From positions 164,371-228,370 of the forward strand of contig JAFLVK010000001.1 of the NCBI GenBank assembly GCA_022508345.1: DNA of 64,000 bases. The letters are read 5' to 3'. The translations under genes were made by a program, and so were the position numbers. Under the pieces are notes generated by a model, which was given only the letters and a program-made list of their open reading frames with translations, was not told where the DNA came from and ran no database searches. Positions 44,643-64,000 of the stretch are shown here, in pieces (positions within the stretch are counted from its first letter, which is position 1; every line of letters starts with the position of its first letter). Source of the DNA: Clostridiales bacterium (GTDB lineage: Bacteria; Bacillota; Clostridia; Christensenellales; CAG-314).

Positions 44643-44834
44643 AAAATTCACCTTCGTTTTTATTTTAATATAGTATAAAAAACAAATAAATACAGTTTGA
44701 TGTCTTATTATATGTAAATTTTTGAACTGTAACGGACGAAAATTGTCAATTTTTATTCTTCCGTATTGACTTTACATTATTTATATCGTAAAATATTGAT
44801 AAATTATGTAAAATTTTGTTTTCAAAGGAACATT

Positions 44835-47327: not shown

Positions 47328-47374
47328 GGTCACGCCAAATTATAAATTTCACTATTATCCCCAAAATCAATTTT

Positions 47375-47402
47375 CTGCCCAAAACCGCAATGTTTTGGGC
47401 AG
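47375..47402 (+). terminator. Rho-independent terminator of the AraC-GH39 gene; last core feature before the island
   Basis: ctgcccaaaa / ttttgggcag 10-bp stem with an 8-nt loop, followed by a T-rich tail. Confidence 0.7.
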
Positions 47403-47450
47403 TTCAATTTCTCCATTTACTACCACTATTCCTTAATCCCATATCACAAA

Positions 47451-47725
47451 GTCAGAAGCATTTTGACCCAAAATCCAATTTAGGAAATCTTAACCATTTT
47501 CCCTCTTTTTCTCGCTTAAAATACGACGAATTCGTGCTAAAACTAGGATTTTTTAACCACTTAACATCTTTTCTCGTTTGCATATCGGATTTTTCCCCAA
47601 TTTTCCCAAACACGGAACTGGAATCCTTTACATCCGGTGGAATATAACATATACCCCCATCGAATTCCCCAGATTAAAAAGTTGCAAAAATTACATTTCC
47701 CCAATTTTCAATAAATTGGGGAAAA
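47451..47725. repeat. Direct repeat copy A (~275 bp) at the core/island junction, 3' of module 1
   Basis: Aligns with 52978-53250. The core 47531-47725 versus 53058-53250 looks roughly 80 percent identical by eye (not computed). It contains TTTCCCCAATTT twice direct (47592-47603, 47696-47707) and once inverted (47713-47724). The last pair forms a 12-bp hairpin followed by a U-run on the minus strand. Confidence 0.8.
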
Positions 47726-47823
47726 TAGATATCATGATGTATTGAACTGATTTTCATTGGAATTAAAAATAAACATTTATGATTGACCGCTAGTCAATAA
47801 ACTTGGGGACTTCCTATAATTAT

Positions 47824-49719
47824 TTATTTTGTTTTACCATACTGTTTCATCACATCTCTTAGACATATCTCATTCACTTTATCAAAAAAATTATGATCAA
47901 ACATGCTACCGACAAAATAGTTCTCTATACGCAGTTTATATCGCCCGATACTCATTTGATTTTCTTGATAAACTATTTTATCTCTATAATTAAAAATACA
48001 GAAATCACAATCATAGAATTTAAAGAGTTTATAGATATTTACTTCACCCTCGAACACCTTTTTTAGTTTGCGTATCTTAACATAATCTTCAAATAATGTC
48101 CCTCTGTCAAATGGCAAAATAAAATTGTCAAAATCCATGATATACACATCATCCTTTACAATAACACCATCTACTGTTCCAGAGTGTATAACAATGCTCT
48201 TTATACTATAAAATTTTTTGCTTTTAATTTTTATTCTTTTTTTCTCAAATGCTTCAAAAACGAAGTTCATATTGTTTTTGTAAAAAGAAACAATTCGATT
48301 CAACTGCTTTACATCATCTAAATATTTGACTGATTCTCTTGTTTCTAACTCATGTCCAGTTCTACTTTTACATTCGCAAAAAACGAAAGTATCATTCATA
48401 TAAAACACGGCATCACATTCATATTCTTCCCTATCTACATGATGATGCATCTGCACATACGGAGTTTTGGTTAAATCTAAAAATCTATATAAATTTTTTT
48501 CAAAATTATGTCCTTTGATATCAATATTAATATCTTGACTGTTAAACCTCGAAATGACAGACCTCGCTGCGTGAATCCATTTTGTAATAGAAAGACAAAT
48601 GGCATACTTATTGTTTATTGGAATAAATGGATAATCGTATAAATCTGTCGCACCTTTGCGTAGTATCATGTTATCAAAAACGATTGTCGCACTCTCTACA
48701 GGAATTCCATTTTTTACAAATATATTAATCCATTGCTTTTTAGTCTTACAATAAATGTGATTAGATAGAATTTTTGAAAAAGACACAATATCTTTGTTAG
48801 AGTTATTTTGGCTTATTTTATAAATAATCACATAGGCTTTAATCCAATATTTTATTTTAACACTTTTTATTTCGATGTCTGCACTTTCGCAGTAAAAGTG
48901 CTTATCCAATATTTTTTGACTAGTGTACTCCATCACTTTGGGAGTCAAATTTCTAAACGGTTTAATATAAAAATAATATTCATGAAGCGCGTTATTTTCA
49001 TAGATAAAACTCATTATTTTTTCTTTTATATACGGACTCGTGTACTGTGTGAGCCTTATCTTATCAAGTATAGATAGGTGAACTTCTTTATCATTTATTA
49101 TTTCTAAACCATAAATGTTCTTTTTCCAATAATTATATTTTTCATGCCACATGGAAACGTTGTATGAGTTAATTAAATACTCCATCACGCACCTTTTATA
49201 TTTAAATGGTGACGACAAAGCATCTGCGTCATTTAAACTACACATAAACTTACTATCGCTATACACTTTTTCATTGTATATTAAGGACTTTATTGCTTGT
49301 ATGGTAAGTTCCGCATTTTTTTCATATGCCGTGACGCTGTCTGCATGTTTTCCCTTGAAAAAGTCTTTTGCTTTAGCAGACTCGTATTTTTCAACATTAT
49401 ATGATCCCCAATAAAGTAAAAGCGGCAAAATTAAGTTGGGTGGGACAGCATCGATTTTGCTTTGCAACCTTGCGCATTCCTCAAATATAGCATTTATTAT
49501 GTTTATTTCCTCGAGATAAGCTATAGCTTCTTTTATTTGAAGTTTCTCCAAAATGTCATCAACCAACTTATTGAATTTATGAGTCCCACGAACATCAACT
49601 AAAAAGTCACAACTCTTTAATTCTTTAATATTCTCAAGGAAATTTCCATTTTGAATTAAGTTACATAACTCTTCCGTATCACTATTATCAATAATTCTAT
49701 CTACAGTTTTTTTATTCAT
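47824..49719 (-). CDS. Uncharacterised 631-aa protein with PD-(D/E)xK nuclease-like core
   Basis: AT-rich ORF with a 14-nt gap to the upstream gene. GHNFEKNLYRFL...EYECDAVFYMNDTFVFCECKS fits E...D...ExK. The N-terminal ~400 aa has no motif I recognise. Confidence 0.7.
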   Translation of the reverse strand: MNKKTVDRIIDNSDTEELCNLIQNGNFLENIKELKSCDFLVDVRGTHKFNKLVDDILEKLQIKEAIAYLEEINIINAIFEECARLQSKIDAVPPNLILPLLLYWGSYNVEKYESAKAKDFFKGKHADSVTAYEKNAELTIQAIKSLIYNEKVYSDSKFMCSLNDADALSSPFKYKRCVMEYLINSYNVSMWHEKYNYWKKNIYGLEIINDKEVHLSILDKIRLTQYTSPYIKEKIMSFIYENNALHEYYFYIKPFRNLTPKVMEYTSQKILDKHFYCESADIEIKSVKIKYWIKAYVIIYKISQNNSNKDIVSFSKILSNHIYCKTKKQWINIFVKNGIPVESATIVFDNMILRKGATDLYDYPFIPINNKYAICLSITKWIHAARSVISRFNSQDINIDIKGHNFEKNLYRFLDLTKTPYVQMHHHVDREEYECDAVFYMNDTFVFCECKSRTGHELETRESVKYLDDVKQLNRIVSFYKNNMNFVFEAFEKKRIKIKSKKFYSIKSIVIHSGTVDGVIVKDDVYIMDFDNFILPFDRGTLFEDYVKIRKLKKVFEGEVNIYKLFKFYDCDFCIFNYRDKIVYQENQMSIGRYKLRIENYFVGSMFDHNFFDKVNEICLRDVMKQYGKTK

Positions 49720-49733
49720 TCAATATACCCATA

Positions 49734-50987
49734 TTAATTTAAAGCTGAATTATGGACAATAATCGTCTTAGAACTAATGATTTCTCTCGGTTCTGCGAGT
49801 CTTACAATCTCATACTCAAAGCTGGCCACACCTATTTTTTGTTGATATACAGTGAGATTATTTTTCTTTGCAATTTGCATGAGTCGTTCTTTATTCTCTT
49901 TAGATATATCTTTCCCCATATAAATCCCTGTGGCAAAAGGAAACCATATTAAACCCGGCTCTTCTCCGCCGATTACAATTCTCCATTCTTGCTCATTCGA
50001 ATACTTCGGGTTTTTCATAAGCGTTTGCAGATGTAGTTTTGTTGCCATATCTGGATCATGGGAGGTGTTCTTTATTTCGAACAATGTATCATGGTATTGT
50101 AGAAATTGAAATTTATATGAGTTAAATTTCGGTCTTCGTTCCGTATAAAATACAGGTAATAATCCTTTCAACGCATATACTGAACTTTCAACATCCAGCA
50201 AATCGAATCTTATTCCTTGAGTAAAATCATATCTAATACAAAAGCCACCATAATTGTCCGCATATTCTTCCCACATTTTAGGGTTGTTATTAGTTTCAGT
50301 CAAACTGCAAACATATCTTGCTTTTCGATTTAAATCGATTGTAGACGAACACCATTCCTCACAGTGTGCCTTATACCAATCAAGCAATCCCTGTGCTCTG
50401 CCGCGCTGTGATATTTCTTGATCGAACAGCACAATTTTTTTTACAATTTTCTCCCGTTGTTCTATCGGATACTTTTTCTTTATATATTTTTGTGTTCTCT
50501 TAACATTTAATACTAAATCGTCATTATAACAATGTGCAAAAAATATGTTTCTTACTTCTTCTGGCGTTAATGAATTTTCGTCTTTAGAAAGGTTATCTTC
50601 ATTGTTGACATAAATGTAGGAGGCAAAAACAAACCATTTTGCAAGCCTTTTTATTTTACTTTTCGGCAGGTTCTTGATTGAAAAAGGTAGTCTACAATCG
50701 TATGGATCCATAAATTGTTCAGCCGAAGATACCCAAATACTGTTATCTTCTAACGCTTTGAAATTGTTCGCATTGCAACTTCGATATTTAAACAAACACT
50801 TCGGAACCGTCTTCAGGTGATCCAAAATATATCCTAAATCATCAAACTTTTTTCGCTGCTCGGATATTTTCAGCGAAGCCCAAATAGAATTCGGATCTTC
50901 TGACATTTCTCTAAAATACTCTTCAAGCAACATGTTCCTTATGTATCGTTCAGTTTTTTTGAGTCGATATTTTTGTTTTAACTTCAT
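49734..50987 (-). CDS. DUF2971-like protein
   Basis: CLFKYRSCNANNFKALEDNSIWVSSAEQFMDPYDCRLPF reproduces the DUF2971 N-terminal signature (L.KYRs...l....lw.s....fNDP.E), with a later EQEWRIVIG block. RBS is AAGGAGAA. Confidence 0.7.
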   Translation of the reverse strand: MKLKQKYRLKKTERYIRNMLLEEYFREMSEDPNSIWASLKISEQRKKFDDLGYILDHLKTVPKCLFKYRSCNANNFKALEDNSIWVSSAEQFMDPYDCRLPFSIKNLPKSKIKRLAKWFVFASYIYVNNEDNLSKDENSLTPEEVRNIFFAHCYNDDLVLNVKRTQKYIKKKYPIEQREKIVKKIVLFDQEISQRGRAQGLLDWYKAHCEEWCSSTIDLNRKARYVCSLTETNNNPKMWEEYADNYGGFCIRYDFTQGIRFDLLDVESSVYALKGLLPVFYTERRPKFNSYKFQFLQYHDTLFEIKNTSHDPDMATKLHLQTLMKNPKYSNEQEWRIVIGGEEPGLIWFPFATGIYMGKDISKENKERLMQIAKKNNLTVYQQKIGVASFEYEIVRLAEPREIISSKTIIVHNSALN

Positions 50988-51191
50988 TTATTCTCCTTAG
51001 CATTTCGCTCTCACATTTTTATTATTTTGGTCTATAAATAATGAATGAGTGATATACTTATTGCCATGTGCTTGGATGTGATATTCCCATAATAAATTTT
51101 TTTTACCAATTCTCAAAATGTTCACCACGCATTCTAATAACAATTTATTTTACTGCTATCTCATCGCTTTCGAATTTCATAATATTGTCGA

Positions 51192-51512
51192 CTACCTTCC
51201 ACTTCTACTGCCTACAATATTTTTCTTTTTGTTATTATGGTAATGTCCGTGAAATTGTATAGACTTGCTTTTATTCGTTTTATTGAGACTAATATATGTA
51301 GTAATATTAGTTGTTTTACTAACCGGTTGTCTCATTTCTACTTTTGCAATGTCAATTTCAACTTTGTTGCGATGTATCTCCTGGTTAATTTGCCAATATT
51401 TACTCGGTTCATAAAATTCACTTACATTAGATCTTTTACTACGTAAGCGCTGAATATTTTTATCTGCAATTCTAATTCTCTCTTGTGGTGTTTTATTTTT
51501 AAATATAAACAT
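51192..51512 (-). CDS. Small basic protein (106 aa), unknown function
   Basis: Start moved to ATG 51512 (MFIFKNKTPQERIRI), which has AAGGTGGA 8 nt upstream and removes the overlap with the RNase III-like gene. Lys/Arg/Asn-rich. No homology recognised. Confidence 0.55.
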   Translation of the reverse strand: MFIFKNKTPQERIRIADKNIQRLRSKRSNVSEFYEPSKYWQINQEIHRNKVEIDIAKVEMRQPVSKTTNITTYISLNKTNKSKSIQFHGHYHNNKKKNIVGSRSGR

Positions 51513-51531
51513 TTCTAAATTCCACCTTAAA

Positions 51532-52515
51532 TTATTTCTCATCTTGTTCGAGTACATATAACAGCATTGAGTATGCTGATGCCTTTTTAGCTTCTTTCTT
51601 TAGAGGCGCTGTCTCCCTAAAGCAAATATCATATTCTTCTATACTACATGTACAAGTCCAAAAAGTATTGTTGTGCACGTCCAATTGTTCTTCGAATAAA
51701 TACTCGGGCATCGAAAAATATTCCTTTTGCGCCAATTCCTGCAATTGATTTATTGCATTGTCTAACGATGGTTCGTCGATTTCATCTGCCATAGAGTACA
51801 TCCTCCCACTATCTTCTAGATAGCGATAAACTTGTTTTGCTGCCTCCATTCGGGCTTCATTCTTTGTCATTCCATCGCCTGAAAATTTGTAGCCATCAAC
51901 ATTTACTGTACAATGATAATAATCCCACGTAAACTTAAATCTATAATTCGGCGCCTTGCCAAATTCCTTTTGATGCCACTGTTGAACTAAAGCGACATAG
52001 TTATTGTCCTCAGTGAAACTATTTTGAATATAATGATCAATATCCAACATAAGACCGACTACTTCTTGTATGATTTCAAGATCCCAATTACAGTCCAGTG
52101 TTACAGCTCCTACGATAGCTTCAAATAAATCCTCTTTAACATGAGTATCCTCGGCAACATTTTGCTTAATATCGCCGTTTCCCATTATCAAATATTTTTG
52201 AAATCCGAACAACTCAGTTCTGCTGGCGAGCATTTTGCTTTTCACAAGCCGTTTCTTGATTTCGGTCAGCTTTCCTTCAGTGCGTTTTGAGATAAATTCT
52301 TCTTCCTCAGTAAATTCGCCATAATACTCTATAAGTGTTTTCATTACGGCAATATCAAGAGCTTTATCTCCAATAAACTCCAATACCTCATTATCTTCAC
52401 TTTCTGGATGCTCTTGCGAATAGGATTTTCTGATAAACGCCTGCTGTAACAACATTTTGTTATCAAACTGATATCCAATTTGTTTTTCAATTTCTCTTAG
52501 TTCTTTTTTTGTCAC
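51532..52515 (-). CDS. RNase III-like ribonuclease with two C-terminal dsRBD-like domains
   Basis: RNase III signature NEVLEFIGDKALD and second acidic cluster KEDLFEAIVGAVTLD. dsRBD-like 1 is NYRFKF...GDGMTKNEARMEAAKQVYRYL. dsRBD-like 2 is MPEYLFEE...TAPLKKEAKKASAYSMLLYVL. GTG start with GGAGG 10 nt upstream. Confidence 0.8.
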   Translation of the reverse strand: MTKKELREIEKQIGYQFDNKMLLQQAFIRKSYSQEHPESEDNEVLEFIGDKALDIAVMKTLIEYYGEFTEEEEFISKRTEGKLTEIKKRLVKSKMLASRTELFGFQKYLIMGNGDIKQNVAEDTHVKEDLFEAIVGAVTLDCNWDLEIIQEVVGLMLDIDHYIQNSFTEDNNYVALVQQWHQKEFGKAPNYRFKFTWDYYHCTVNVDGYKFSGDGMTKNEARMEAAKQVYRYLEDSGRMYSMADEIDEPSLDNAINQLQELAQKEYFSMPEYLFEEQLDVHNNTFWTCTCSIEEYDICFRETAPLKKEAKKASAYSMLLYVLEQDEK

Positions 52516-53903: not shown

Positions 53904-55355
53904 TTAACTGTTATTGATTTCATCGTACTTTTTTAATAAAAAGTCACTAATTGTATTGTCGATTTTCCTTTGTTGCAATAATTCAATTATTTCCTCATCC
54001 GTTATATGTATTATCCAGCCACGCCCATCCTTTACTGTGTCCATTTCACATTGAATAAATTTTTGCGGATCATCCAAATATCTACAGCAAATAATACCGA
54101 ATTTTCCTCTATTTGCAGAAAATCTCCCTGACATTTGATCCAATTCTGGGTTTGCAATGTCTTTAGAATAATTCTTACACTCTACCATAATTAAACTGCA
54201 TGGTACATTATAGGTCGTACCTAAATAATGTAAGAATCCACTCTCAGCAATATTATTGAACACAATATCTATGCGCTTTCTGCCGTCATTTATCTCCTTC
54301 TCGATTTTGGGATGAGCAATATATGGATAGAAAAGCAACTCTAAAATTCCGCTAATCAGTCGATGATACCTTGTCGCATGCTCACTTCCCGGTGGTATAG
54401 ATTTAAGCGCCTCTATAAGATTATCGATAATTTCTTCTATATCTTCATCGCTTATATCATCTAATTCTCCATATGATATCTTTTGAATAATCTCATTTTT
54501 AAATTTGCTCAGCACATCAGGATTTTCTTTTGTAAAACGTGATAACCAATTTTTTGTTAAAAATTCGCCACGACTTTCGTAATCTGCTACAATGTCTTTC
54601 TTACAAACCTTAGCATTTTTTAGTGATCCATTTTTGTCGTATGTTTTTCGAACCAAATGCGTGTCCTCTTTTAAGTTTTTCTCTTTTAAAAATTCAAGCA
54701 CATATTGATTCAAGAATTCCTGTGCGTTGTAATATTTTGCGTCAGAAACTAAATTTTTAGGAAACAATAGATATCTTTTCCCATCTATTACCAGTGTTTC
54801 GTGGTGTCCTCTATCCCAACGTGTAGCAGTTTTATTCCAATAGTAGCCAACCTCAGCATTAGTTAACTTTATACCCAATAACTCACACTGTTCCTTAGTG
54901 TACTTAATAAGTGGATATTTTATAATATTAGCAACCATATCAGAAACCTTGTCCTTATCCACACCTTCGACGAACAATCTTAAATCTTCAATATGTTCTG
55001 CTACCCCATCATTTATTGCGCAACTTTTCTTGATTGCTTCAAAAATCGTTCGCGCGTTTACTCGTCCAACGCCTTTACCCGCCGGCTTGCCACGACTCAT
55101 TCCTAAGCATATCTCATTAACTTCTCCCAAATGATTAAAAAGCTCAAACGCACGTTCTTCATCATATTGTAATAAGTATAAAAATCTATTAAAAAAGGTT
55201 TCTATGTACTCATTACATTCAGCTAAAAAAGCATCTTCCTTCCGGGAAATATAATAAGGATCGAAAAACATATATGTGTCGAGTTCTATTTCATAGTCAT
55301 AAAAATCCAATTCCAGTTGAGACTTCTTAAGCCCTAATTTCTCACTTATTTTCAT
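53904..55355 (-). CDS. 483-aa protein with novel N-terminal region and C-terminal restriction-endonuclease-fold (Mrr/NERD-like) domain
   Basis: C-terminus EHATRYHRLISGILE...GRKRIDIVFNN...SLIMVECKNYSKDIANPELDQMSGRF fits E...D...ExK. Start set at ATG 55355 after GGAGGAATT. Confidence 0.7.
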   Translation of the reverse strand: MKISEKLGLKKSQLELDFYDYEIELDTYMFFDPYYISRKEDAFLAECNEYIETFFNRFLYLLQYDEERAFELFNHLGEVNEICLGMSRGKPAGKGVGRVNARTIFEAIKKSCAINDGVAEHIEDLRLFVEGVDKDKVSDMVANIIKYPLIKYTKEQCELLGIKLTNAEVGYYWNKTATRWDRGHHETLVIDGKRYLLFPKNLVSDAKYYNAQEFLNQYVLEFLKEKNLKEDTHLVRKTYDKNGSLKNAKVCKKDIVADYESRGEFLTKNWLSRFTKENPDVLSKFKNEIIQKISYGELDDISDEDIEEIIDNLIEALKSIPPGSEHATRYHRLISGILELLFYPYIAHPKIEKEINDGRKRIDIVFNNIAESGFLHYLGTTYNVPCSLIMVECKNYSKDIANPELDQMSGRFSANRGKFGIICCRYLDDPQKFIQCEMDTVKDGRGWIIHITDEEIIELLQQRKIDNTISDFLLKKYDEINNS

Positions 55356-55368
55356 AATTCCTCCTAAA

Positions 55369-57171
55369 TTATAATATATCAGCAATAGTAATTTTTATAT
55401 ATTCGCGCAAATACTTAAATGGGAATGGCACAACTGTTAACTGTCCGTTGCGAACAAATGTAACCGACATTAATGGCAGCAAATCATCAAACATAACAGT
55501 TGCATTTTTGTGCGCTTCTATTAATCTAATATTAGCTGCTCGATTAATTTTTCTCTTCATTCCTTCTCCGATTTCGCCGACAAAATAATATTGTATGCCA
55601 TCAATTTTAAACATCTTAATATCTAAGCACGCTGATAGTAGTTTTTCTCGCATTGCTTTACCACGCAGCTTTGTATTTCCGCTTTCAAGTTCTGCTTTGA
55701 TACTATCAATCATCGGAATAGTAAACCAATCGGTATCTTTAATAATGTTAATTTCATTTTTCGAGTTTTTTATAATACCGTTAATCTTTTCCGATCTTAA
55801 TTTGGCATCCTCAAATATTTCAACACATTCGCTATATTCTGTTAAGTTAAACAAATCTAACTTCGTTTCTCTAAATTCAAATGTACCATCTGGATGTATA
55901 TTCATAAAGAAAGATCTATCCTCATGCGTCACGCCAAAAGAAATGTTTTCATTGTAACCAAGCTTGTCCCATTCAAACAAAGAAATGCGTTTTGTCTTGA
56001 TGTCGTCCTTAATTAACAATTCGTTAACTACCGTTTTAATCGCAAATTCAGCACAGTCGACGAAATCTTCCAATGTGATATGCTGAATAACCGCATCGTT
56101 ATATTCTTCATAAGCATCCTCATTTCCGCCATAATACTCGGCATTATGAATAACGCATATATTTAAACTTTGTTTGTTGATTTTTTTGCTTAAGTTTGCA
56201 TTTATACTGTATGTATCATATAAAAGTTGTTGGATTTCCGAACAAAATCTTTTTGAGTATTCGTCAGATATTTTATCAACAATGTTTATTGACTTGGAAG
56301 TCAAAATCGTCTCGATACGTTTTTTATTTTCTCGTTTTTCCACATGTGAATAATCAAGTGAAGAATACTCCTCTATCTTTTCGAGCTTTATTTGCGCATA
56401 TTTTGCATGCTTGCCATTAAACTCATTTAAAACTGAATACAAAACGCCTAGCTTACAACAATTAAATTTGTCGATGTCTTCCAAATTTAAAAATGGAATT
56501 TCAATCTTTTTGCCTTCTATTTGTCTTAGTATAAAGGCACCACCTTTATCATCTTTCAACTTGCGTTTTAATGTATAATGTGCTGAAATGACATATTGTG
56601 GATATTCGTCAAATTTTCGCTTTTCGAACACTATATGATTGCGTAATTTAATTGATGTAAAAGTATGAACATTGAACAATAAATGAAAGTCTTTCGTTAT
56701 TCTAATGTCTAGGCAAGGAATTTGCCATATGATTTCATTAGTTTTTTCCTTAGATTTTTTCAACCATTGGGGATGAAAACAGTATAAGTGTCCAGTTAAG
56801 TTATTAAACTTCAAGTTTGTACTCTCAAAATTTCCCATGCCATTTAACAATAATTGCAACGAGATATAATGAGGAAGTTGAGAAAAATTGAGTTGTTGTA
56901 TAGACAAGTTTTCAGATCCTTCGCAACTGTTTAGGATTAGGAGTAATGAATGTCTGTTTTCTTCATTATGTTTCATTAATACATATAACGATTTGCCTTT
57001 TTCAAAATACAATGAATAAACAGAATTTCCAAGGGATGGTGCATCTAATATAAATGCACCACTCCGAATATAATTCTCAGATGTTGATATTTGAAAAACA
57101 TCAAATTGTTTATTTAATTCTGTTATATTCAAAGAGTAGTTTACTCTATTAGTACTAATTGGAAAACTCAT
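55369..57171 (-). CDS. 600-aa protein, possible catalytically inactive Argonaute/PIWI-like protein
   Basis: No catalytic motif found. The C-terminal TVVPFPFKYLREYIK resembles the PIWI C-terminal [ST]VP.P..YA motif. LNICVIHN...YEEYNDAVIQHI resembles a MID strand-helix. The gene overlaps the helicase gene by 17 nt and has AAGGAG 8 nt upstream of its ATG. The fold assignment is inference only. Confidence 0.6.
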   Translation of the reverse strand: MSFPISTNRVNYSLNITELNKQFDVFQISTSENYIRSGAFILDAPSLGNSVYSLYFEKGKSLYVLMKHNEENRHSLLLILNSCEGSENLSIQQLNFSQLPHYISLQLLLNGMGNFESTNLKFNNLTGHLYCFHPQWLKKSKEKTNEIIWQIPCLDIRITKDFHLLFNVHTFTSIKLRNHIVFEKRKFDEYPQYVISAHYTLKRKLKDDKGGAFILRQIEGKKIEIPFLNLEDIDKFNCCKLGVLYSVLNEFNGKHAKYAQIKLEKIEEYSSLDYSHVEKRENKKRIETILTSKSINIVDKISDEYSKRFCSEIQQLLYDTYSINANLSKKINKQSLNICVIHNAEYYGGNEDAYEEYNDAVIQHITLEDFVDCAEFAIKTVVNELLIKDDIKTKRISLFEWDKLGYNENISFGVTHEDRSFFMNIHPDGTFEFRETKLDLFNLTEYSECVEIFEDAKLRSEKINGIIKNSKNEINIIKDTDWFTIPMIDSIKAELESGNTKLRGKAMREKLLSACLDIKMFKIDGIQYYFVGEIGEGMKRKINRAANIRLIEAHKNATVMFDDLLPLMSVTFVRNGQLTVVPFPFKYLREYIKITIADIL

Positions 57172-60100
57172 GAATCAAACTCCTTATTTCTCTAAATGCC
57201 TTTACACTGACCTGCGGTTTTTTATAACCGAAAAACAAACATGGAACATCTACAATTGTGACTTCGCCGGAACTCCGAACAATTGGACGTTCTTCTTTGG
57301 TCAAAATGTTAATAGTCAAAACGCATTTGCATCCACATTTTTTTGCTTTACAAATTATTTTTGATCTCATTTTTTCTTTATCTATAGTCATAGATTCATG
57401 CCAGTGTTTAAAATCAACATATATAGGTGCGTCTTTAACCTTAAAATCAAAACACTCAAATAAGTCATTATCGTTTATTTCATCTAGGTCTATGTCAAAA
57501 TAACGCTTTAAGAGATACCTGCCAACGAATTCACCCAATGCGCCTTTATATATGTTGTTATATAAGGCTGGGGACACAATAAAATTACCCGGTTTAAATG
57601 TGGTTGCATAGTGTTTTTCATTAAATTGATCTTTTACACCTTCTATTTCCATTAAAACATTTAGTCGCGCATCGTGGGCTGACACTTCATAGTTAAAATG
57701 ACTTCTTTGCTGGAATGAAACTAATATGTTATTAAAATCTGATTCTTGCTGGTAAAATATGCGATCTTGTACTTGCGGCAATTTTACATACAGCTGATTT
57801 ATCATAAAATTTTTATCCATATCAATTTCATTTCTAGAGAATGTTGGATTTCGTAACACCATTTCTCGCATTTCCTTCCAATCCTTCATGCTATCATCAG
57901 TCCAATCCTCTCGCAAAATGTTCTGTATAAATTTATTAACACGAACAGATAGTAAAGAGGCCGTATTTTCGGCGATATTGCTATTGTTGATACATGATGT
58001 TGATTGCACCTTACTCATCAGTGCCAAAAACTCAGGATTAAACAAATTACTATTAATAATTGTTTTATCAATATTTTCATGCAATCTACTATCTGCTAGA
58101 ATATAAATTTTTCTTTTCTTCTGATTGGTTCTGCAGATACGACCTATTGCTTGAATTATGGTCCGTGTGCAAAGCAGTTTAACATCCTGCAGGTCATATA
58201 AATTTTTAACCCATTCTGAACGTGCATGACCAGTCATGTAGCATCTAAAAGCCTTTTTTATATGGGAGAACGCTTCCGTCATTGAAAGCTGTCCATTCTG
58301 CTGTAAAAACTCAACATGGAAAATGTATTTGGCAAAGTCCTCCTCTATCAAATGTTCGTCTAGTCGAACCAATAAATTTGTTGGTTTGTCTAAATATATA
58401 GCATCAAAATCTTTCTCGTTTCTAGAATCAAAATCATTTACACCAATTAGCCGTTTTCTATCACCTTGCGGTATAGGATATTGTAAGTTTTGTCCAGCTC
58501 CAATAGTTTGATAAACGGAGATGACGAATAATCTTTCCCCTTTTGCTAAACGCGAAATAATATGTTCTTTTCGAGCATCGTATTCATCTCCATCCAACTG
58601 AATAACTGTATCCTCTTGAAAAACCTCTTTTTTGTTTTCTTCCCATATGTGTTTGAAAATTTTCAACAAAAAATCAATATCAAGCATTGCATTATTTTTT
58701 CGAGGATGTCTGGTTAATACACATAAGAATGATTGAATATCATCATGTTGAACGAAAAATTTAAAAGCGGATGCTACTCGACAGTATCTTTTCTTATCGT
58801 AATTATTACTGTCATCGGAGAACATTATTTCTAAATTTTCATAAACATCATAAACGCGTTCTGTCTTCAAAACTTCTTGCCATGCAGATAGACCATAATT
58901 TGCCTCTGAATTTTCACCAATGATGGACACATCAATATCTATATTGTCATAGCCTTTTGTAGCAATTGCATATTGATCGCTTAACCGCTTCAGATCTTCT
59001 TGCGAGACCTTGCAAAATGCAGTCTTCATTTTTGCTTGTAAATAATCCATGTCATAATTTCCTATATTCGTTGGAATTGTAGCCGTTGCTGAAATACCAA
59101 TTACCTTGGCACGCTCGCAAATTTTCAACAATATTTTTTCTGGAGTATTTTGAAAAGAATACATCATTATTTTAGACTGCATATCATGAAAGGTGTCGTT
59201 CTCAAATGCGTAATATCTGAAACCCCGTTCATAAAACGACAGGTCATAGTTTGCTCCCTCAATGTTGGTAGACCTTTTGGGCGATGCTGATAGTATTTGT
59301 AGTGTAAGGTATTCTATCGAATCATTTGACAATCTGAATTCTGACAAAACCGATCTTATTGCTGATTCCATCGAAAAATCGTCTTCGCCAGTTTTATGTC
59401 TCTCCCGCTTCGTTTCCAGATAATTTATTGCAAGAATGCTGACGCCAATTTGAAAATACGTAATAAATCCGCGCAATTTGCCAAGCATAACATGGATATT
59501 TTGCGAATCATGCTGCGGCTTTTTATCCGCAAACTTTATTTCATTTAGTCTTAACTTTTCATTACTGTATGTATAGATGAAAGATTTATTACCATTCAAT
59601 ATCGAATGAAATTGGTGATCTTGAAATAAAAAATTCTTATTTTGATCTTCTGCTTCCACACTAGTTCTATGACTAAATTTTAAAGAAAAATCTTTGTATA
59701 ATACCTCTGCTTTTGACCTTATATCATCAATAATACCATCAAGTGACTGATCGGCGAATCTACTAGCTTGTCTCTGTCGCGATGCGGTTGTTAAGACAGA
59801 GGGAAATTCAGTGGTTTGCAAACCAGAATAAATTTCTCTAAACAATTCAATATAATCAATTTTATCTCGTAACCCATTTTCTATAATATTGTTTAAAATC
59901 GTTGCCTTTGTTGCGTCAAACTCATCTATAAATATTACTGCATCTTTAATTATGTCTGAATTGTAAAACATATATGACGGTTCAACAATGGTTGAATTTC
60001 TAGAAAGAAATTTATCCATGCTCATAAAAATAATTTGTTTGCTTTGTGTAAATACAGCAGGATATAACCTGCCTAACCATTGCCAACGCTCACTTGTTTT

Positions 60101-60625
60101 TATGGCATAAAGCTTATCTTTAACGGATGTAAATTCTTTATTAAGATACGCTTGTATTAAGCCTCGGAATGCGGGCTCTGTTTTTTCGCGAAGATTTTTC
60201 TCGATGGTCTCCACTAATTGTTTAGTCGTATTATCAGATTTTTGTCTTTTGATAAAAAGAAGATCTTGTTTAAGTGCTCTATATTCGTCTGTTTTTGTTA
60301 TTTCAGATGGCATACTTTTTTCTAATTTGGCATTCCAGTTGGTTAATACAGTATCAATATTGGAATCCAAAAAGACAAATTTTTCATCAAAAAGCACTTG
60401 TTCATTACGTCTAGCAAACCTTTCTTTTAATTCATCAATCGGCAGGTTCTTTTTTTGCGTGGTAATAAAAAACACTTTTTTCTTATCAAACTTATGCGAC
60501 AGCACTGCATCACAAATATAGTCTAAAACAGAATGTGTTTTACCAAATCCTGTTGGCATATCTATTAGTAATAACCCGTTCGATTTGTCATTATTCTCGC
60601 AGTATTTTTTTATGATTTGATACAT
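57155..60625 (-). CDS. SF2 (DinG/DdmD-like) helicase with C-terminal PD-(D/E)xK nuclease-like domain
   Basis: Motif I LIDMPTGFGKTH, II VIFIDEFDAT, III VIGISATATIP, V-like QTIGAGQNL and VI IIQAIGRICR. The C-terminus is GALGEFVGRYLL...ECFDFKV...IYVDFKHW. Start set at ATG 60625 after GAGGTG. Confidence 0.85.
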   Translation of the reverse strand: MYQIIKKYCENNDKSNGLLLIDMPTGFGKTHSVLDYICDAVLSHKFDKKKVFFITTQKKNLPIDELKERFARRNEQVLFDEKFVFLDSNIDTVLTNWNAKLEKSMPSEITKTDEYRALKQDLLFIKRQKSDNTTKQLVETIEKNLREKTEPAFRGLIQAYLNKEFTSVKDKLYAIKTSERWQWLGRLYPAVFTQSKQIIFMSMDKFLSRNSTIVEPSYMFYNSDIIKDAVIFIDEFDATKATILNNIIENGLRDKIDYIELFREIYSGLQTTEFPSVLTTASRQRQASRFADQSLDGIIDDIRSKAEVLYKDFSLKFSHRTSVEAEDQNKNFLFQDHQFHSILNGNKSFIYTYSNEKLRLNEIKFADKKPQHDSQNIHVMLGKLRGFITYFQIGVSILAINYLETKRERHKTGEDDFSMESAIRSVLSEFRLSNDSIEYLTLQILSASPKRSTNIEGANYDLSFYERGFRYYAFENDTFHDMQSKIMMYSFQNTPEKILLKICERAKVIGISATATIPTNIGNYDMDYLQAKMKTAFCKVSQEDLKRLSDQYAIATKGYDNIDIDVSIIGENSEANYGLSAWQEVLKTERVYDVYENLEIMFSDDSNNYDKKRYCRVASAFKFFVQHDDIQSFLCVLTRHPRKNNAMLDIDFLLKIFKHIWEENKKEVFQEDTVIQLDGDEYDARKEHIISRLAKGERLFVISVYQTIGAGQNLQYPIPQGDRKRLIGVNDFDSRNEKDFDAIYLDKPTNLLVRLDEHLIEEDFAKYIFHVEFLQQNGQLSMTEAFSHIKKAFRCYMTGHARSEWVKNLYDLQDVKLLCTRTIIQAIGRICRTNQKKRKIYILADSRLHENIDKTIINSNLFNPEFLALMSKVQSTSCINNSNIAENTASLLSVRVNKFIQNILREDWTDDSMKDWKEMREMVLRNPTFSRNEIDMDKNFMINQLYVKLPQVQDRIFYQQESDFNNILVSFQQRSHFNYEVSAHDARLNVLMEIEGVKDQFNEKHYATTFKPGNFIVSPALYNNIYKGALGEFVGRYLLKRYFDIDLDEINDNDLFECFDFKVKDAPIYVDFKHWHESMTIDKEKMRSKIICKAKKCGCKCVLTINILTKEERPIVRSSGEVTIVDVPCLFFGYKKPQVSVKAFREIRSLIHEFSN

Positions 60626-60785
60626 AAAACACACCTCATCTTATTTGTACAAAAATTGTTCTACCATCGATTTGGGTTTCCTCTCATAAGAGTGAAAAAT
60701 AATTATCAGGAATTCCCTTCGATAAAAGTAGATATATAATATACCTATACAAATATATTTTTGTTAAGCACAATTAAAAATATTA

Positions 60786-60815
60786 TAAAAAGCTATTGCT
60801 CAATTACAATAGCTT
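60786..60815 (-). terminator. Rho-independent terminator ending module 3, upstream of module 2
   Basis: Minus sense aagctattg-taattgag-caatagctt followed by TTTTTAT. It begins about 15 nt after the stop at 60830. Confidence 0.7.
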
Positions 60816-60829
60816 CATATTGATATCGC

Positions 60830-61597
60830 TTAGGATAAAGTTTTATTTTTTATATGATAGGCTATATTACGTGCCTCGCAAAACTCTATTACTTGGTGAG
60901 CTGCATTGTTGAAAAACTCTTTGTGCTGTTTATATGTTGTTGCCACCTTGTTGTAGTGAATACGCCCAAAGATTATTTTGTCAACAAAGCTTATTTCTTC
61001 TAATATTTGTGCCAAATCTTGCTCGCACATATTAGGTGTAGGATACGGCTCAACGCTTACCCATGTCCTAAACCCTGCATCGTGTAACGCACGTAGAGCG
61101 GCTATTCTTTCAGGATACGGTGCTGTGTTACACTCATATTGCACGCGAAAATGATCATCCAAGGATACCAAGGTAATACCATATTCATTTTCATGAGAAT
61201 AGTTGACGAGTTCAATTGGCAAAAGACCTTTTGTCAATACAGTGCACTTTATACCGTTATCATTTAGTGTACCTATTATTTGTAGACTTAAATTTTTTAC
61301 TTCGTCCTGACCATACATAAAAGGATCTGTCATAAAGGACAATTGGACCGATTTAATTTTATTCTTGTATTTAGGTATTTCCTTGTTCAGTATTTCAAGA
61401 GCATTCCCGACAAGCTTGGGCTCACACCAATCTTCATAAGTTTTAACTTGACCAAATCTCTTCTTCATCATCATCGCATAACAAGGATATTTACAACCAT
61501 GTGAACAGCCTTGAACATGATTTATTGTATAATCCCCATATTCCACACCTGTTTTATATAAAAGAGATTTTCGGTTGATCTTTTTCACTTTTTCCAC
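60830..61597 (-). CDS. Radical-SAM-like (SplB/COG1533-like) protein with atypical three-Cys motif CX3CX3C
   Basis: NHVQGCSHGCKYPCYAM resembles the NPY.GC.HGC.YCYA cluster motif but has one extra residue. Downstream blocks FMTDPF, VLTKGLLP, RIAALRALHDAGFRTWVSVEPYP follow the COG1533 layout. 13-nt overlap with the TcmP-like gene. Confidence 0.7.
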   Translation of the reverse strand: MEKVKKINRKSLLYKTGVEYGDYTINHVQGCSHGCKYPCYAMMMKKRFGQVKTYEDWCEPKLVGNALEILNKEIPKYKNKIKSVQLSFMTDPFMYGQDEVKNLSLQIIGTLNDNGIKCTVLTKGLLPIELVNYSHENEYGITLVSLDDHFRVQYECNTAPYPERIAALRALHDAGFRTWVSVEPYPTPNMCEQDLAQILEEISFVDKIIFGRIHYNKVATTYKQHKEFFNNAAHQVIEFCEARNIAYHIKNKTLS

Positions 61598-62786
61598 CTC
61601 ACAGAAACAGTTTTCCCGCGTCCTTCAGACATAAAAGTTGTTGCCTTTCCATTGTTTGTGGTTTGAGGATTGCGAATTACTTCGATGATTCCAGCTTTTT
61701 CCCATGTTTTTAATATGTCTTTGATGTGATTCGTAGCGCAGATTGCTCCATATTCAACAAAAAAGTTCGCCAAAGCCTCATGTAGTGAAATTGCTGTTGT
61801 ATATTTAGAAAAATGGCGCCTTGCTTTTTCTTTGATGTCATCTATGTCTATTATCTCATTGTCAAAGGTCTCTTCAAATAGCGACATTTGTCCATAATTT
61901 TGAATATCTCTAAGGTTTTGCCAACGATTATAAATATTGTCTACCATCAACAGACATCCATCTTTGTGATTAGTGGCATGAACCATTCTGTACTTTGGTC
62001 TTTGTCCTGGTTTTATTCTAAGTGGCAAATTCAAAACATATTTGTAACTATGACTTAGTCTTCTACAATATTCGTCGGCAAATGTTTTCTCTGCTTCATA
62101 GCCGTCGATTTTTGACGCTTTATAATCTTTAATAATTTCTTGCCAATAATCTCCACCTGCAATATCGTTAAGGTCTTGTATTGACTTTTCGGAAGCGACA
62201 AATCTACTGGGTTCATATTCGACTAGGTCATCAAACAATTCCTTATCATCGAATCGTGTTCCTAAAGCATTACAAGCCTCTCTGATAAAACCGAATGAGT
62301 TCAAATTTATTAGCAACTCAATTGAATTAAAGCCACTTCTTGCAAAACCGTCAAACTGCCAACAATTAAGTGCTTTTATACCATATGGATCAATGTATAA
62401 GAACACATTACAATTTCTTTTTTTTTCAAGATGTCGAGAATATTATCCTCATATTTACCCGAATAGATATTTACATACTGATATCCGCACAAATTTTCGC
62501 GTAAATCATCAGCATAATTTAGATCAATAAAATTGGTGCTGATATCAACAGCATCCATAGTTGTGCTACTCACGCAATTTTGTATTATATCTAACGCAAT
62601 CAGTGGCGAACCAGGTTTGCCATCGTCAAACTTACCCTTTCCGGCAAAGCAATCGACGTAAACCAACGGTTTGTATGTATGTAAAATTTTTTGAACGTAC
62701 GGTCTAAAATAACAACCAAGTAGTTCGTCCTTTACCTCAGACCATGCCTTCTTCTCTTTGAAAAAATCATCATTATTTTTCGACAC
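61585..62786 (-). pseudogene. TcmP-like (three-Cys-motif partner protein, methyltransferase-fold-like) gene split by a frameshift at an A9 tract
   Basis: The N-fragment 62376-62786 (KKAWSEVKDELLGCYFRPYV...LVYVDCFAGKGKF...GSPLIAL) and C-fragment 61585-62406 (FLYIDPYGIKAL...) are adjacent frames. The C-fragment frame stays open upstream through EKKRNCNV into the run of nine T (62418-62426, A9 on the coding strand). A 1-nt change there fuses them into one protein of about 400 aa. Confidence 0.7.
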
Positions 62787-62808
62787 TTAATAATCTCCTC
62801 TTTCGCAT

Positions 62809-63267
62809 CTATTTGTCTAGTACAACTACTCCTTTTTCAGTTTCCAGGAGTATCCCTTCTAGCATGCCGCCTTGATTTATGTGGCCGACAACAATTTCGT
62901 CCGCAAGTTCGATAACTTTGAGGTTGCGAATCCGAGCACGTTCGCGAGTTACAATGGGGATATCATCATCGAAGGGTGATACAATCAACATTTGCCCGCT
63001 TTCCACTGCTGCACGGTATTTGGCAGGACACTTGACAAAGATACTTCTTGCCAACACCATTACAATTGGACTTGTCCCCTGCAACAAAATATCCAAGATG
63101 TCCATTTCCAATCTGCTTTGAAAGCCGGAAATTACACACCTCTTTTGCTTTTTAATTTCACTTACCCAGTCATAAGATGCCAGAACAGATTTGCTACTGT
63201 ATTTATCCGAGCAAAGAAAAGCTATCTTTTGAGTATTTAATAGTTGTATATTACCTATTGATTTCAT
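62809..63267 (-). CDS. DprA/Smf-like (SLOG superfamily) Rossmann-fold protein
   Basis: KIAFLCSDKYSSKSVLASYDWV...RCVISGFQSRLEMDILDILL...SPIVMVLARSI...GQMLIVSPF follows the DprA core layout (ivGsR...vvSG.A.GiD...tiaVla.g...llsp). Confidence 0.6.
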   Translation of the reverse strand: MKSIGNIQLLNTQKIAFLCSDKYSSKSVLASYDWVSEIKKQKRCVISGFQSRLEMDILDILLQGTSPIVMVLARSIFVKCPAKYRAAVESGQMLIVSPFDDDIPIVTRERARIRNLKVIELADEIVVGHINQGGMLEGILLETEKGVVVLDK

Positions 63268-63292
63268 TTCGTTAAATAGCTACTTAACACCG

Positions 63293-64000
63293 TTAATCGT
63301 TTTCGTCTTCAACGCCGAGCCGATATTTGATATCGTAGTTGATAATATAATCCAATTCTTCCTGTGTAAAGCCATATGCTGTCGCCAAGTTTATATCAAT
63401 TAAATCCATAGTGTTTTTACTGAGCGCCTTATTGTATGTAATAGTCTCGTTTGCACCACGTGTGACACTGTTTATAGTGTAGTGTTTTGCATTAGAAAGC
63501 AACTCGCTTTCCATGGTATTTGATAATTCTACAATAGAGGCTACATCAATGGAATAATAGTTCATTCTAAAACCAAATAGCATGTAGTCTTTAAAATTGA
63601 AGTGATCATAATTTACACAGTAATACCACCAGAAAATGTTAGAGTTCAGCGCAGCACTTATTACTCTTGAATCACATTTAACTTCAAAACTTTTTGACTT
63701 GTTACTCAAAGACTCTGTTTGAAAAGGAGAATTGAGAATAGTTATCCAATATCCACCACCTGCTGTTCTATAATAAACGGCATTTTCAACATTGTGTTTA
63801 TCTAGATAGAGGTTAATAGGTCTGTGCCTATATAATTTATCTTCGATAGCCAACTCGATTTTATTGCCTAGTTTTAAGAAGTGGTCAACTTTTGCTTGAT
63901 TCGATTTAATATATGCTACTCCCTCAAATAAAAAACGACGTGTATGAGAATACCATCTTTTTACACCCGATGTATAAAAAGCGCGTTGATAACCATGTAT
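63293..64000 (-). CDS. C-terminal (TaqI_C-like specificity) part of an N6-adenine DNA methyltransferase or type IIG restriction-modification enzyme; 5' end beyond the window
   Basis: My translation shows the frame is open from 64000 (IHGYQRAFYTSGVKRWY...) through the ORF-track segment. IFWWYYCVNYDHFNFKDY and the tail LATAYGFTQEELDYIINYDIKYR are typical of the TaqI-class C-terminal target-recognition domain. The catalytic part is not visible. Confidence 0.6.
   Translation of the reverse strand: MHGYQRAFYTSGVKRWYSHTRRFLFEGVAYIKSNQAKVDHFLKLGNKIELAIEDKLYRHRPINLYLDKHNVENAVYYRTAGGGYWITILNSPFQTESLSNKSKSFEVKCDSRVISAALNSNIFWWYYCVNYDHFNFKDYMLFGFRMNYYSIDVASIVELSNTMESELLSNAKHYTINSVTRGANETITYNKALSKNTMDLIDINLATAYGFTQEELDYIINYDIKYRLGVEDEND

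Follow-up and report, generated by a model that had tools for sequence, protein, structure and literature searches.

Organization of the locus

The last 3.2 kb of a 64,000-nucleotide stretch of a Clostridiales genome (contig JAFLVK010000001.1; the whole stretch is called the window hereafter) carry a string of genes on the minus strand, in which five open reading frames (ORFs) make up four genes. In reading order, these encode the C-terminus of an MmeI/Eco57I-family methyltransferase, a DprA-like protein, a TcmP protein and a radical S-adenosylmethionine (SAM) enzyme. The 3.2 kb consist of two independent modules that adjoin each other within a defence island of low GC content. Module B (60830-62786), the main subject of this work, is an autonomous, horizontally mobile TcmP/radical-SAM cassette; the first two genes belong to module A, which runs from 62809 to beyond 64000 and is described after it.

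The methyltransferase frame (63293-64000, last 235 codons) runs off the window. After a gap of 25 nt it is followed by the ORF of a DprA/Smf-like Rossmann protein of the SLOG type (62809-63267, 152 aa), recognized by Pfam, PADLOC and a profile match, and after 22 nt more by the N-terminal ORF of TcmP. The gene of the radical-SAM enzyme (60830-61588, 252 aa) comes last and was placed in the clade of spore photoproduct lyase (SPL) and DUF5131 by Pfam, NCBIfam and the predicted fold. Its longest ORF (60830-61597) overlaps the TcmP ORF by 13 nt, while the start supported by databases is a GTG at 61588, giving a 4-nt GTGA overlap with the TcmP stop codon. The string is closed by an intrinsic-terminator-like element on the same strand (60782-60816), an 11-bp hairpin at 60789-60816 followed by a U-run, with a dG of -14.8 kcal/mol and z = -2.95 relative to shuffled sequences; it is absent from the list of a consensus terminator scan. 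Since full-length homologues were numerous for all four genes in the database search, the genes are real and not chance ORFs.

A first-pass annotation, made from the sequence alone, had described this layout in the same way, with co-directional genes, gaps of 22-25 nt, a 13-nt overlap and a terminator at the end, and its coordinates were confirmed, with the caveat that the third gene is interrupted and that the database start reduces the overlap to 4 nt. It had also assigned the genes to families. The second as a DprA-like Rossmann protein, the third as TcmP (from motif I and an IDPYG block) and the fourth as a COG1533/SplB-type radical-SAM enzyme were all borne out by the profile and structure searches given below. 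For the first gene, the methyltransferase recognition tail was recovered as the C-terminus of a type IIG, MmeI/Eco57I-type enzyme, while the TaqI_C label proposed for it was not.

Pairing of TcmP with the radical-SAM gene

The conservation of the string was followed in genomes and metagenomes. The genome survey covered one genome per species (185,579 species genomes) and yielded 177 TcmP-type stretches; all genome-locus counts refer to the best 80 of the 177 stretches encoding the window's type of TcmP. These loci belong to Bacillota, Bacteroidota, Spirochaetota, Synergistota, Verrucomicrobiota, Alphaproteobacteria and Actinomycetota, and their hosts are nearly all anaerobes. In 78 of the 80 loci, TcmP is immediately followed by the radical-SAM gene; the remaining two are one contig end and one gene loss. 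The metagenome survey was queried with the radical-SAM protein and gave at least 600 matches, the best 80 loci being analysed. A co-directional, abutting ORF precedes the radical-SAM gene in all 78 of these loci with upstream sequence, and 70 of the 71 upstream ORFs of at least 250 aa match TIGR04474, the NCBIfam model of TcmP. The window follows the definition of TcmP as a protein encoded beside a three-Cys protein, in that the neighbouring radical-SAM gene, with C28, C32 and C36, overlaps the TcmP stop.

No such association was found for the other genes. Across the 80 genome loci, the DprA-like gene was found in none, the HKD-SNF2 helicase gene that lies further upstream in module A in none, the DdmD-like gene downstream of the string in none and an MmeI-type methyltransferase in one. 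Gene clusters flanking the pair are variable, none recurring in more than 13 of the 80 loci. The juxtaposition of the DprA-like and methyltransferase genes with the TcmP/radical-SAM pair was seen only in the window strain and in one sister strain (L109).

The first-pass annotation had read the four genes as one system linking a DprA/SLOG protein and a methyltransferase to radical chemistry, a model to be abandoned if the genes did not co-occur elsewhere. Since they do not co-occur in other genomes, the model fails its own stated test; in the 80 genome loci, only TcmP and the radical-SAM gene travel together. Its broader idea, when applied to the pair, of a so far uncharacterized, nucleic-acid-directed system linked to restriction-modification or defence agrees with all the observations. 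The earlier interpretation is thus partly supported, with the families right and the unit wrong. The downstream DdmD-like gene was considered as well as a possible functional partner of the radical-SAM gene, and this was rejected given the 0/80 count and the terminator that stands between the two.

A conserved enzyme with an exchanged partner

The asymmetric conservation of the two proteins and the swapping of one of them are the most interesting new facts of this analysis. Any two of the radical-SAM proteins share at least 53.5% identity (median 67.5%), whereas the TcmP proteins form 10 clusters at 40% identity or more and average 22% identity per alignment column. Across the TcmP alignment, only the D-P of motif IV (DPY) never varies; two residues of motif I (IDCxxGxG), its D and its G, come close to invariance.

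The sister strain L109, which comes from the same study, shows the exchange directly. Over a stretch that starts with the first base of the radical-SAM gene and takes in the DdmD-like gene and the one after it, its DNA is 94.9% identical to that of the window, and the DprA-like genes of the two strains are 88% identical, but the TcmP between these parts is a 368-aa allele with 22% amino-acid identity to the window TcmP and no detectable nucleotide similarity. The breakpoint is located exactly at the TcmP/radical-SAM junction. In addition, among 91 locus pairs with radical-SAM genes at least 80% identical, the TcmPs are without BLAST similarity in 12. Such diversity and swapping beside a conserved radical-SAM enzyme indicate that TcmP behaves like an exchangeable specificity or sensor subunit. 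The pattern is the one known from the swapping of HsdS or of MmeI-family target-recognition domains (TRDs) in type I and type IIG systems, where a conserved catalytic partner likewise stands beside a variable one that is exchanged between near-identical strains with a sharp junction breakpoint. The likeness is one of analogy only, as TcmP is not homologous to HsdS and its sequence-specific recognition of DNA is putative.

TcmP: frameshift, family and predicted fold

The TcmP gene of the window is not an intact ORF: a frameshift divides it into an N-terminal ORF of 136 aa (62376-62786), which holds motif I (VDCFAGKG) and was assigned by TIGR04474, PADLOC PDC-M30A and alignment, and a C-terminal ORF of 273 aa in the -1 frame (61585-62406), which carries motif IV (IDPYG) and, in the AlphaFold model, a helical insert and a winged helix at its C-terminus. 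Scored separately against TIGR04474, the two halves gave 1e-13 (51.8 bits) and 3e-9 (37.1 bits), each under the cut-off of 53 bits. The frame breaks at a run of nine A (62418-62426 on the minus strand; T9 on the plus strand), where the reading of the C-terminal ORF that is homologous to relatives begins. Runs of ten or seven A would restore the frame, and adding one A gives a TcmP of 400 aa that passes the TIGR04474 cut-off with 99.6 bits and is 64-76% identical to 400-aa homologues from end to end. The repaired junction (ILKKKRNCNVFLYIDPYG) aligns without gaps to 20 intact 400-aa homologues, none of which has the K-K-K run.

No disrupted TcmP was found among about 77 full-length copies in the genome loci, and homopolymers of at least 8 bases occur in only 8 TcmP genes of the 80 loci, at other positions. 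Since the homologues have no A-run and the genome loci no disrupted copies, the A9 has the appearance of an A10 tract (encoding K-K-K-R) that recently lost a base by slippage. To judge from the sequence, the window TcmP has probably lost one nucleotide from this tract and is a pseudogene or in a phase-OFF state, the cassette being switched off or decaying. We considered a conserved programmed -1 frameshift at A_AAA_AAA and discarded it, as the A-run is present there in 0/20 intact homologues. Partial frameshift rescue by slippage on A_AAA_AAA is possible in general, and transcriptional or -1 ribosomal slippage on the A9 possibly restores some full-length TcmP. Two further contigs with the same A9, L001 and L003, were rejected as independent confirmation of the frameshift because their 100% identity to the window over 11-13 kb makes them the same strain. 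A second case of TcmP decay was observed on an IMG/VR contig (L107:10001-10921), where the TcmP next to an intact radical-SAM gene has suffered an internal deletion and contains stop codons.

The AlphaFold model of TcmP (mean predicted local distance difference test, pLDDT, of 76.8) has a class-I methyltransferase fold. In the structure search, the best TM-scores were for the rRNA m6A methyltransferase RlmJ, with KsgA/Dim1 ranking high by E-value. Residues 320-400, modelled with pLDDT above 90, form a helix-helix-helix-strand-strand winged helix, and the L109 allele carries the Pfam family GMT-wHTH. TcmP has motif I (D-x-F/x-G-x-G) and a motif IV-like D-P-Y/F in common with RlmJ and KsgA/Dim1, but it shows no detectable sequence homology to them and its motif is DPY(G), not DPPY; these enzymes also act alone, and on rRNA, unlike the paired TcmP. 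Sequence searches were less informative. Pfam found no methyltransferase family in the TcmP halves and 21 full-length members at E ≤ 5, with weak GMT-wHTH matches in 2 members only. The TcmP profile retrieved only spurious Ebola nucleoprotein matches (E about 0.5) from PDB sequences, Foldseek of the model against viral structures gave no informative match, and PHROGs had no family for TcmP or for the DprA-like protein.

By its TIGR04474 score and its weakly DUF5131-like three-Cys partner, the window pair is of the same type as the known TcmP/three-Cys pairs (TIGR04474 with DUF5131/PF07505; PADLOC PDC-M30 and PDC-M41). It differs from them in several respects: the TIGR04474 model has 263 positions, while the window TcmP reaches 400 aa through the helical insert and the C-terminal winged helix; the partner has instead an above-threshold Radical_SAM domain, a CX3CX3C motif and an SPL-like fold; and the window TcmP is frameshifted. 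The literature on TcmP, three-Cys, DUF5131 and PDC-M30/M41 gave mentions at the level of annotations and tables only, for example of TcmP beside Hna in Sinorhizobium and phiLM21-like prophages, in agreement with the first-pass remark that TcmP is without known biochemical function.

The radical-SAM enzyme

The radical-SAM protein passes the Pfam Radical_SAM model (PF04055) with 37.1 bits against a gathering score of 29.5. For DUF5131 (PF07505, phage Gp37/Gp68) it stays slightly below threshold (27.9 against 28.9 bits), and the precomputed PF07505 assignment is present in many close homologues and missing in others. Among NCBIfam models, its closest relatives are the COG1533-type families rSAM_mob_pairB, Rv2578c, PA0069 and SPL; the SPL equivalog TIGR04070 scored 16.8 bits against a cut-off of 400, so that the likeness to SPL is at the level of fold only. 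RadicalSAM.org places DUF5131 beside SPL in Megacluster 5 (PMC9477430). Homologues are annotated as 'DNA repair photolyase', PHROGs returned a family of unknown function (phrog_13321), and the PDB sequence search gave no match.

The AlphaFold model (pLDDT 80.2) shows the partial TIM barrel of radical-SAM enzymes. Its top six Foldseek matches are spore photoproduct lyase, with TM about 0.62, followed by pyruvate formate-lyase (PFL)-activating enzyme, NifB, viperin and others, all top ones with a probability of 1.0. The cysteine motif C28-x3-C32-x3-C36, within GC(S/A)HGCK(Y/F)PCYA, is invariant in 21 sequences. Membership of the radical-SAM superfamily would entail a [4Fe-4S] cluster and reductive SAM cleavage, both of which are putative for this enzyme.

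The closest solved fold is that of SplB (COG1533; PDB 4FHC and 4K9R), which belongs to the same megacluster. SplB is, in contrast, 340 aa long instead of 252 aa, shares 12-14% identity, spaces its cysteines differently and has no TcmP-type partner, whereas the window enzyme has an obligate one. The substrate of SplB is a flipped-out DNA lesion. The 'Ophion' radical-SAM defence system was considered as a relative and rejected, since its enzyme is viperin-like and its partners are PHP and PRTase proteins.

Genomic context of the pair

The surroundings of the pair are rich in DNA methyltransferases and restriction genes. A labelled DNA-methyltransferase cluster is found in 36 of the 80 genome loci within three genes upstream and five downstream of the pair. 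Pfam analysis of the 72 nearest downstream neighbours gave N6_N4_Mtase in 7, N6_Mtase in 6, C5 DNA_methylase in 5, Eco57I in 5 and D12 in 1, together with the restriction components ResIII, HSDR and PLD. Often the radical-SAM gene is directly followed by the whole of a type I, type III or Eco57I-like system. Upstream, ImmA/IrrE peptidases and XRE regulators are found, and serine recombinases and relaxases are common. Ten loci (L012, L013, L017, L019, L021, L025, L030, L032, L034 and L041) have the same upstream trio of an XRE-type helix-turn-helix (HTH) protein, a protein of about 480 aa with ImmA/IrrE and a double zinc ribbon, and a small zinc-ribbon protein; as the restriction-modification systems after the pair differ, this suggests a common regulatory or mobile backbone.

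The pair was also found on eighteen IMG/VR contigs, beside integrases, DNA polymerase, primase, exonuclease and many DNA methyltransferases, with no structural genes among the top families of these contigs. A plasmid collection gave no match to the radical-SAM protein. In PADLOC, the A and B components of the defence candidates PDC-M30 and PDC-M41 match both window proteins, though weakly or partially and over only the N-terminal third to half. A distant, solitary homologue of the radical-SAM protein (about 31% identity) was observed in the replication modules of two cultured Bacteroidales phages, Parabacteroides phage PDS1 (L196, 17996-19507) and Bacteroides phage C1_85S2P (L197), between the genes of a single-stranded DNA-binding protein (SSB) and an ASCH-domain protein, with no TcmP.

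Proposed function of the pair and alternatives

The reading that we favour, with a probability of roughly 0.55, is that of two modules, in which module B is a DNA-directed two-enzyme unit with recognition by TcmP and catalysis by the radical-SAM enzyme, the cassette being probably off in this strain. TcmP still has motif I for SAM binding and a motif IV, DP(Y/F), of the kind found in exocyclic-amine methyltransferases, together with a C-terminal winged helix; it would be the variable, swappable subunit that recognizes the target and presents the base. The SPL-like enzyme would be the conserved catalytic subunit, carrying out 5'-deoxyadenosyl-radical chemistry on the base presented by TcmP. The substrate would be a nucleic acid, most likely DNA, and the product a covalent DNA mark or lesion used in the restriction/anti-restriction contest of mobile elements and hosts.

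Each step of this scheme is suggested by a different set of observations. Since motif I and the DP(Y/F) motif IV are conserved, TcmP may retain the SAM-binding site and the pocket for a flipped base, and since it is diverse and swapped, it would be the protein that selects the target. The gene overlap and the strict co-occurrence point to a TcmP/radical-SAM complex, and the restriction-modification and mobile-element context, together with the relationship to SPL, makes DNA the most likely substrate. The gene families, the pairing, the split into two modules, the asymmetric conservation with exchange of alleles, the genomic context and the frameshift are observed; the DNA substrate, the part played by each protein and the biological role are what we infer from them. 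Module B could place a protective or self-marking modification, serve as a radical 'restriction' effector or assist the neighbouring restriction-modification systems. TcmP/three-Cys pairs have been catalogued for years (TIGR04474; the PADLOC candidates) with no function assigned. One large TcmP branch is now seen to be a strict two-gene unit in at least seven phyla, mostly in anaerobes, and the combination of a conserved SPL-like enzyme with a swapped, recognition-like partner in restriction-modification and mobile DNA points to an undescribed radical-SAM activity in the contest over self and non-self DNA. In its most novel form, which is speculative and for which we would give rather low odds, the proposal is a new two-protein DNA-targeting system: a hypervariable, methyltransferase-derived subunit picks the site and flips the base, the SPL-like CX3CX3C radical-SAM enzyme acts on it to leave a sequence-specific hypermodification or a radical 'restriction' lesion, and TcmP alleles are exchanged like specificity subunits.

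Several observations weigh against the favoured reading. The methyltransferase-like assignment of TcmP comes from a model of moderate confidence and two short motifs, with no PDB sequence match and no Pfam methyltransferase family. The cysteine motif of the enzyme is CX3CX3C instead of the canonical radical-SAM motif CX3CX2C, and its model is of low confidence over residues 28-53. The DNA substrate is argued from the context and the SPL-like fold, while the best structural matches of TcmP are rRNA methyltransferases, and the enrichment beside methyltransferases may merely reflect shared defence islands or mobile elements. The A9 frameshift was seen only in assemblies 100% identical to the window. 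Finally, no biochemical or genetic characterization of any TcmP or DUF5131 pair was found in the literature.

Among the alternatives, a self-contained 'radical restriction-modification' effector survives best, as a minority prospect. TcmP would recognize, and perhaps methylate, its sites, the radical-SAM enzyme would damage unprotected foreign DNA by radical chemistry and not by hydrolysis, and TcmP would have been diversified by an arms race. The position of the pair in the defence island, with a restriction-modification-like system on one side and DdmDE-like genes on the other, fits this, as do the weak matches to PDC-M30 and PDC-M41, the conserved methyltransferase motifs I and IV, and the hypervariable, swapped TcmP beside a conserved enzyme, as in HsdS or TRD shuffling. 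However, a partner for self-protection is not conserved, and the pair is often the first in operons with complete type I, type III or type IIG systems, which an accessory role fits better; it also occurs within replication and methyltransferase modules of mobile elements and on phage-like contigs.

RNA modification and anaerobic DNA repair rank as weaker rivals. The structural matches of TcmP to the rRNA adenine methyltransferases RlmJ and KsgA/Dim1 would be explained if the pair had an RNA substrate (rRNA or tRNA). It might then be, for instance, a mobile determinant that confers resistance or modifies translation in the manner of Erm/KsgA or Cfr/RlmN, and its place in variable islands would be a coincidence; Cfr and RlmN, being radical-SAM enzymes of rRNA methylation, provide a precedent. 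This is unlikely nonetheless: a conserved RNA target does not explain the extreme diversity and allele swapping of TcmP, in fold and superfamily placement the radical-SAM protein is closest to SPL-type enzymes, which act on DNA, the neighbours are overwhelmingly DNA methyltransferases, restriction genes and recombinases, and the plasmid collection held no radical-SAM match.

We regard as similarly improbable that the pair provides oxygen-independent DNA repair for anaerobes, TcmP binding the lesion and flipping the base, and the enzyme removing by radical chemistry SP-like lesions or the aberrant alkyl or methyl lesions left by neighbouring methyltransferases. The SPL-like fold and the 'DNA repair photolyase' annotation of homologues agree with it, the pair tightly adjoins DNA methyltransferases of many classes, and the hosts are almost all strict anaerobes of gut, rumen and digesters, to which the O2-dependent AlkB chemistry is unavailable. 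Nevertheless, a general repair enzyme should have no need of a hypervariable, swappable partner; repair would be expected in the core genome, while the pair is rare (the 177 stretches of the survey) and on mobile DNA; and the SPL equivalog score is far below its cut-off.

Already largely refuted by the co-occurrence data, and very unlikely, is a single modification or modification-dependent defence system made up of all four gene products, with the SLOG/DprA protein bringing DNA to the radical enzyme: co-directional genes with short gaps, no internal terminator and a single one at the end are in its favour, as is the same gene order in L109, but the 80 TcmP/radical-SAM genome loci lack the DprA-like and HKD-SNF2 genes and all but one lack the MmeI-type methyltransferase, the DprA-like gene recurs with the HKD-SNF2 and methyltransferase genes where TcmP and the radical-SAM gene are missing, and the GC content of the TcmP and radical-SAM genes is about 37% against 31-35% in the flanks.

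Module A: HKD-SNF2 helicase, MmeI-type methyltransferase and DprA-like protein

Since the methyltransferase gene runs off the window, it was read on in contigs L001-L003, which are 100% identical to the window. The methyltransferase catalytic part that the first-pass annotation had looked for beyond 64 kb is there: the full protein has 1084 aa (read in L001) with Pfam MmeI_Mtase (PF20473) and Eco57I (PF07669), and it matches PADLOC REase_MTase_IIG over residues 1-1081 at 5e-253. The fragment inside the window aligns to positions 862-1098 of this model (1.5e-19), and its 234 aa gave no Pfam TaqI_C match at E ≤ 0.01. Upstream of the methyltransferase gene lies a gene for a 1117-aa HKD(PLD)-SNF2 helicase (PLDc_2, SNF2 and Helicase_C). 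Against PADLOC, these upstream genes matched 'HKD+Snf2' (1.7e-53), DrmD and DrmMI in addition to REase_MTase_IIG.

The 152-aa DprA-like protein matches Pfam DNA_processg_A (PF02481) with E = 2.5e-5 but stays below threshold (24.0 bits against a gathering score of 29.6). The family profile nonetheless retrieved DprA chains only from the PDB (5mll, 4ljr, 4ljk and 3uqz; best E = 0.002), over residues 3-150. The protein can be aligned over its whole length with the Rossmann domain of DprA/Smf; it consists of this domain alone, with neither of the flanking domains named SAM and DML1, and its family, a rare one of 41 clusters, has an invariant S-x-x-E-x-D in place of the glycine-rich loop. PADLOC PsyrA also matches it over the full length (4e-13). 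Like PsyrA, the DprA-like antitoxin of PsyrTA/RqlHI, it is encoded beside a large helicase gene, but the partner of PsyrA is a RecQ-like toxin, while here the partners are an HKD-SNF2 helicase and a methyltransferase.

Seven distinct neighbourhoods of the DprA-like gene were compared, five of them fetched through DprA-like homologues. In 6 of the 7, the gene stands at the 3' end of an HKD-SNF2 and MmeI-type methyltransferase pair, and four of those neighbourhoods have no TcmP and radical-SAM genes. The genes inserted before it vary (SLFN/AlbA_2-HATPase_c_4, dCMP-deaminase-HATPase_c_4, Fic/MarR), and those after it differ as well (SIR2, UvrD-like helicase). The recurrent trio comprises an HKD(PLD)-SNF2 protein of about 1120 aa, an MmeI/Eco57I-type methyltransferase of about 1090 aa and a DprA-like protein of 143-160 aa, and was observed at window 62809-64000 continued by L001:1687-8780, and in L084, L088, L109, L111, L112 and L114. 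From the gene families, module A is proposed to be an ATP-dependent restriction-modification-like system with the DprA-like protein as a recurrent third component. No description of the trio as a defined system was found, and it constitutes a second lead beside the TcmP/radical-SAM pair. A SNF2 or HKD nuclease-helicase together with an Eco57I/MmeI-type methyltransferase is shared with DISARM class 1, type ISP and type IIG systems. Compared with DISARM class 1, module A has no DrmA, DrmB or DUF1998 and consists of two large genes and a small DprA-like gene; compared with type ISP, in which nuclease-helicase and methyltransferase are on one polypeptide, it has them on separate ones.

Other genes of the defence island

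From about 47.4 kb to its end, the window has a GC content of 29-37%, compared with 39-40% in the preceding genes for sugar utilization (glycoside hydrolases) and ABC transporters. Low GC and defence-type genes together mark this region as a defence island; its boundary is the sharp drop in GC, from about 40% to 29-34%, at about 47300-47900, and it runs to the window end. All island genes described here are on the minus strand. Downstream of the terminator lies a DdmD-like helicase-nuclease of 1156-1159 aa (57155-60634; PADLOC DdmD 1e-47), overlapped by a 600-aa gene (55369-57171) whose C-terminus is weakly DdmE-like (1.7e-8). By sequence comparison, the two appear to be a divergent DdmDE-like pair in a low-GC anaerobe.

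The next gene (53904-55385) encodes a protein of 483-493 aa that matches PADLOC PDC-M36A (4e-39) and Pfam DUF8370; a homologue of it lies just upstream of TcmP in L049. Further into the island, positions 49734-52515 hold an RNase III-like protein with a double-stranded RNA-binding motif (327 aa), a 121-aa ORF and a DUF2971 protein (417 aa), a group that may be another defence-type module. Just before the island, on the plus strand, an ORF of 853 aa (44766-47327) joins an AraC-type regulator with cupin and HTH parts (residues 50-292) to a glycoside hydrolase of family GH39 (residues 354-823); it represents an unusual fusion or else two separate genes merged into a single reading.

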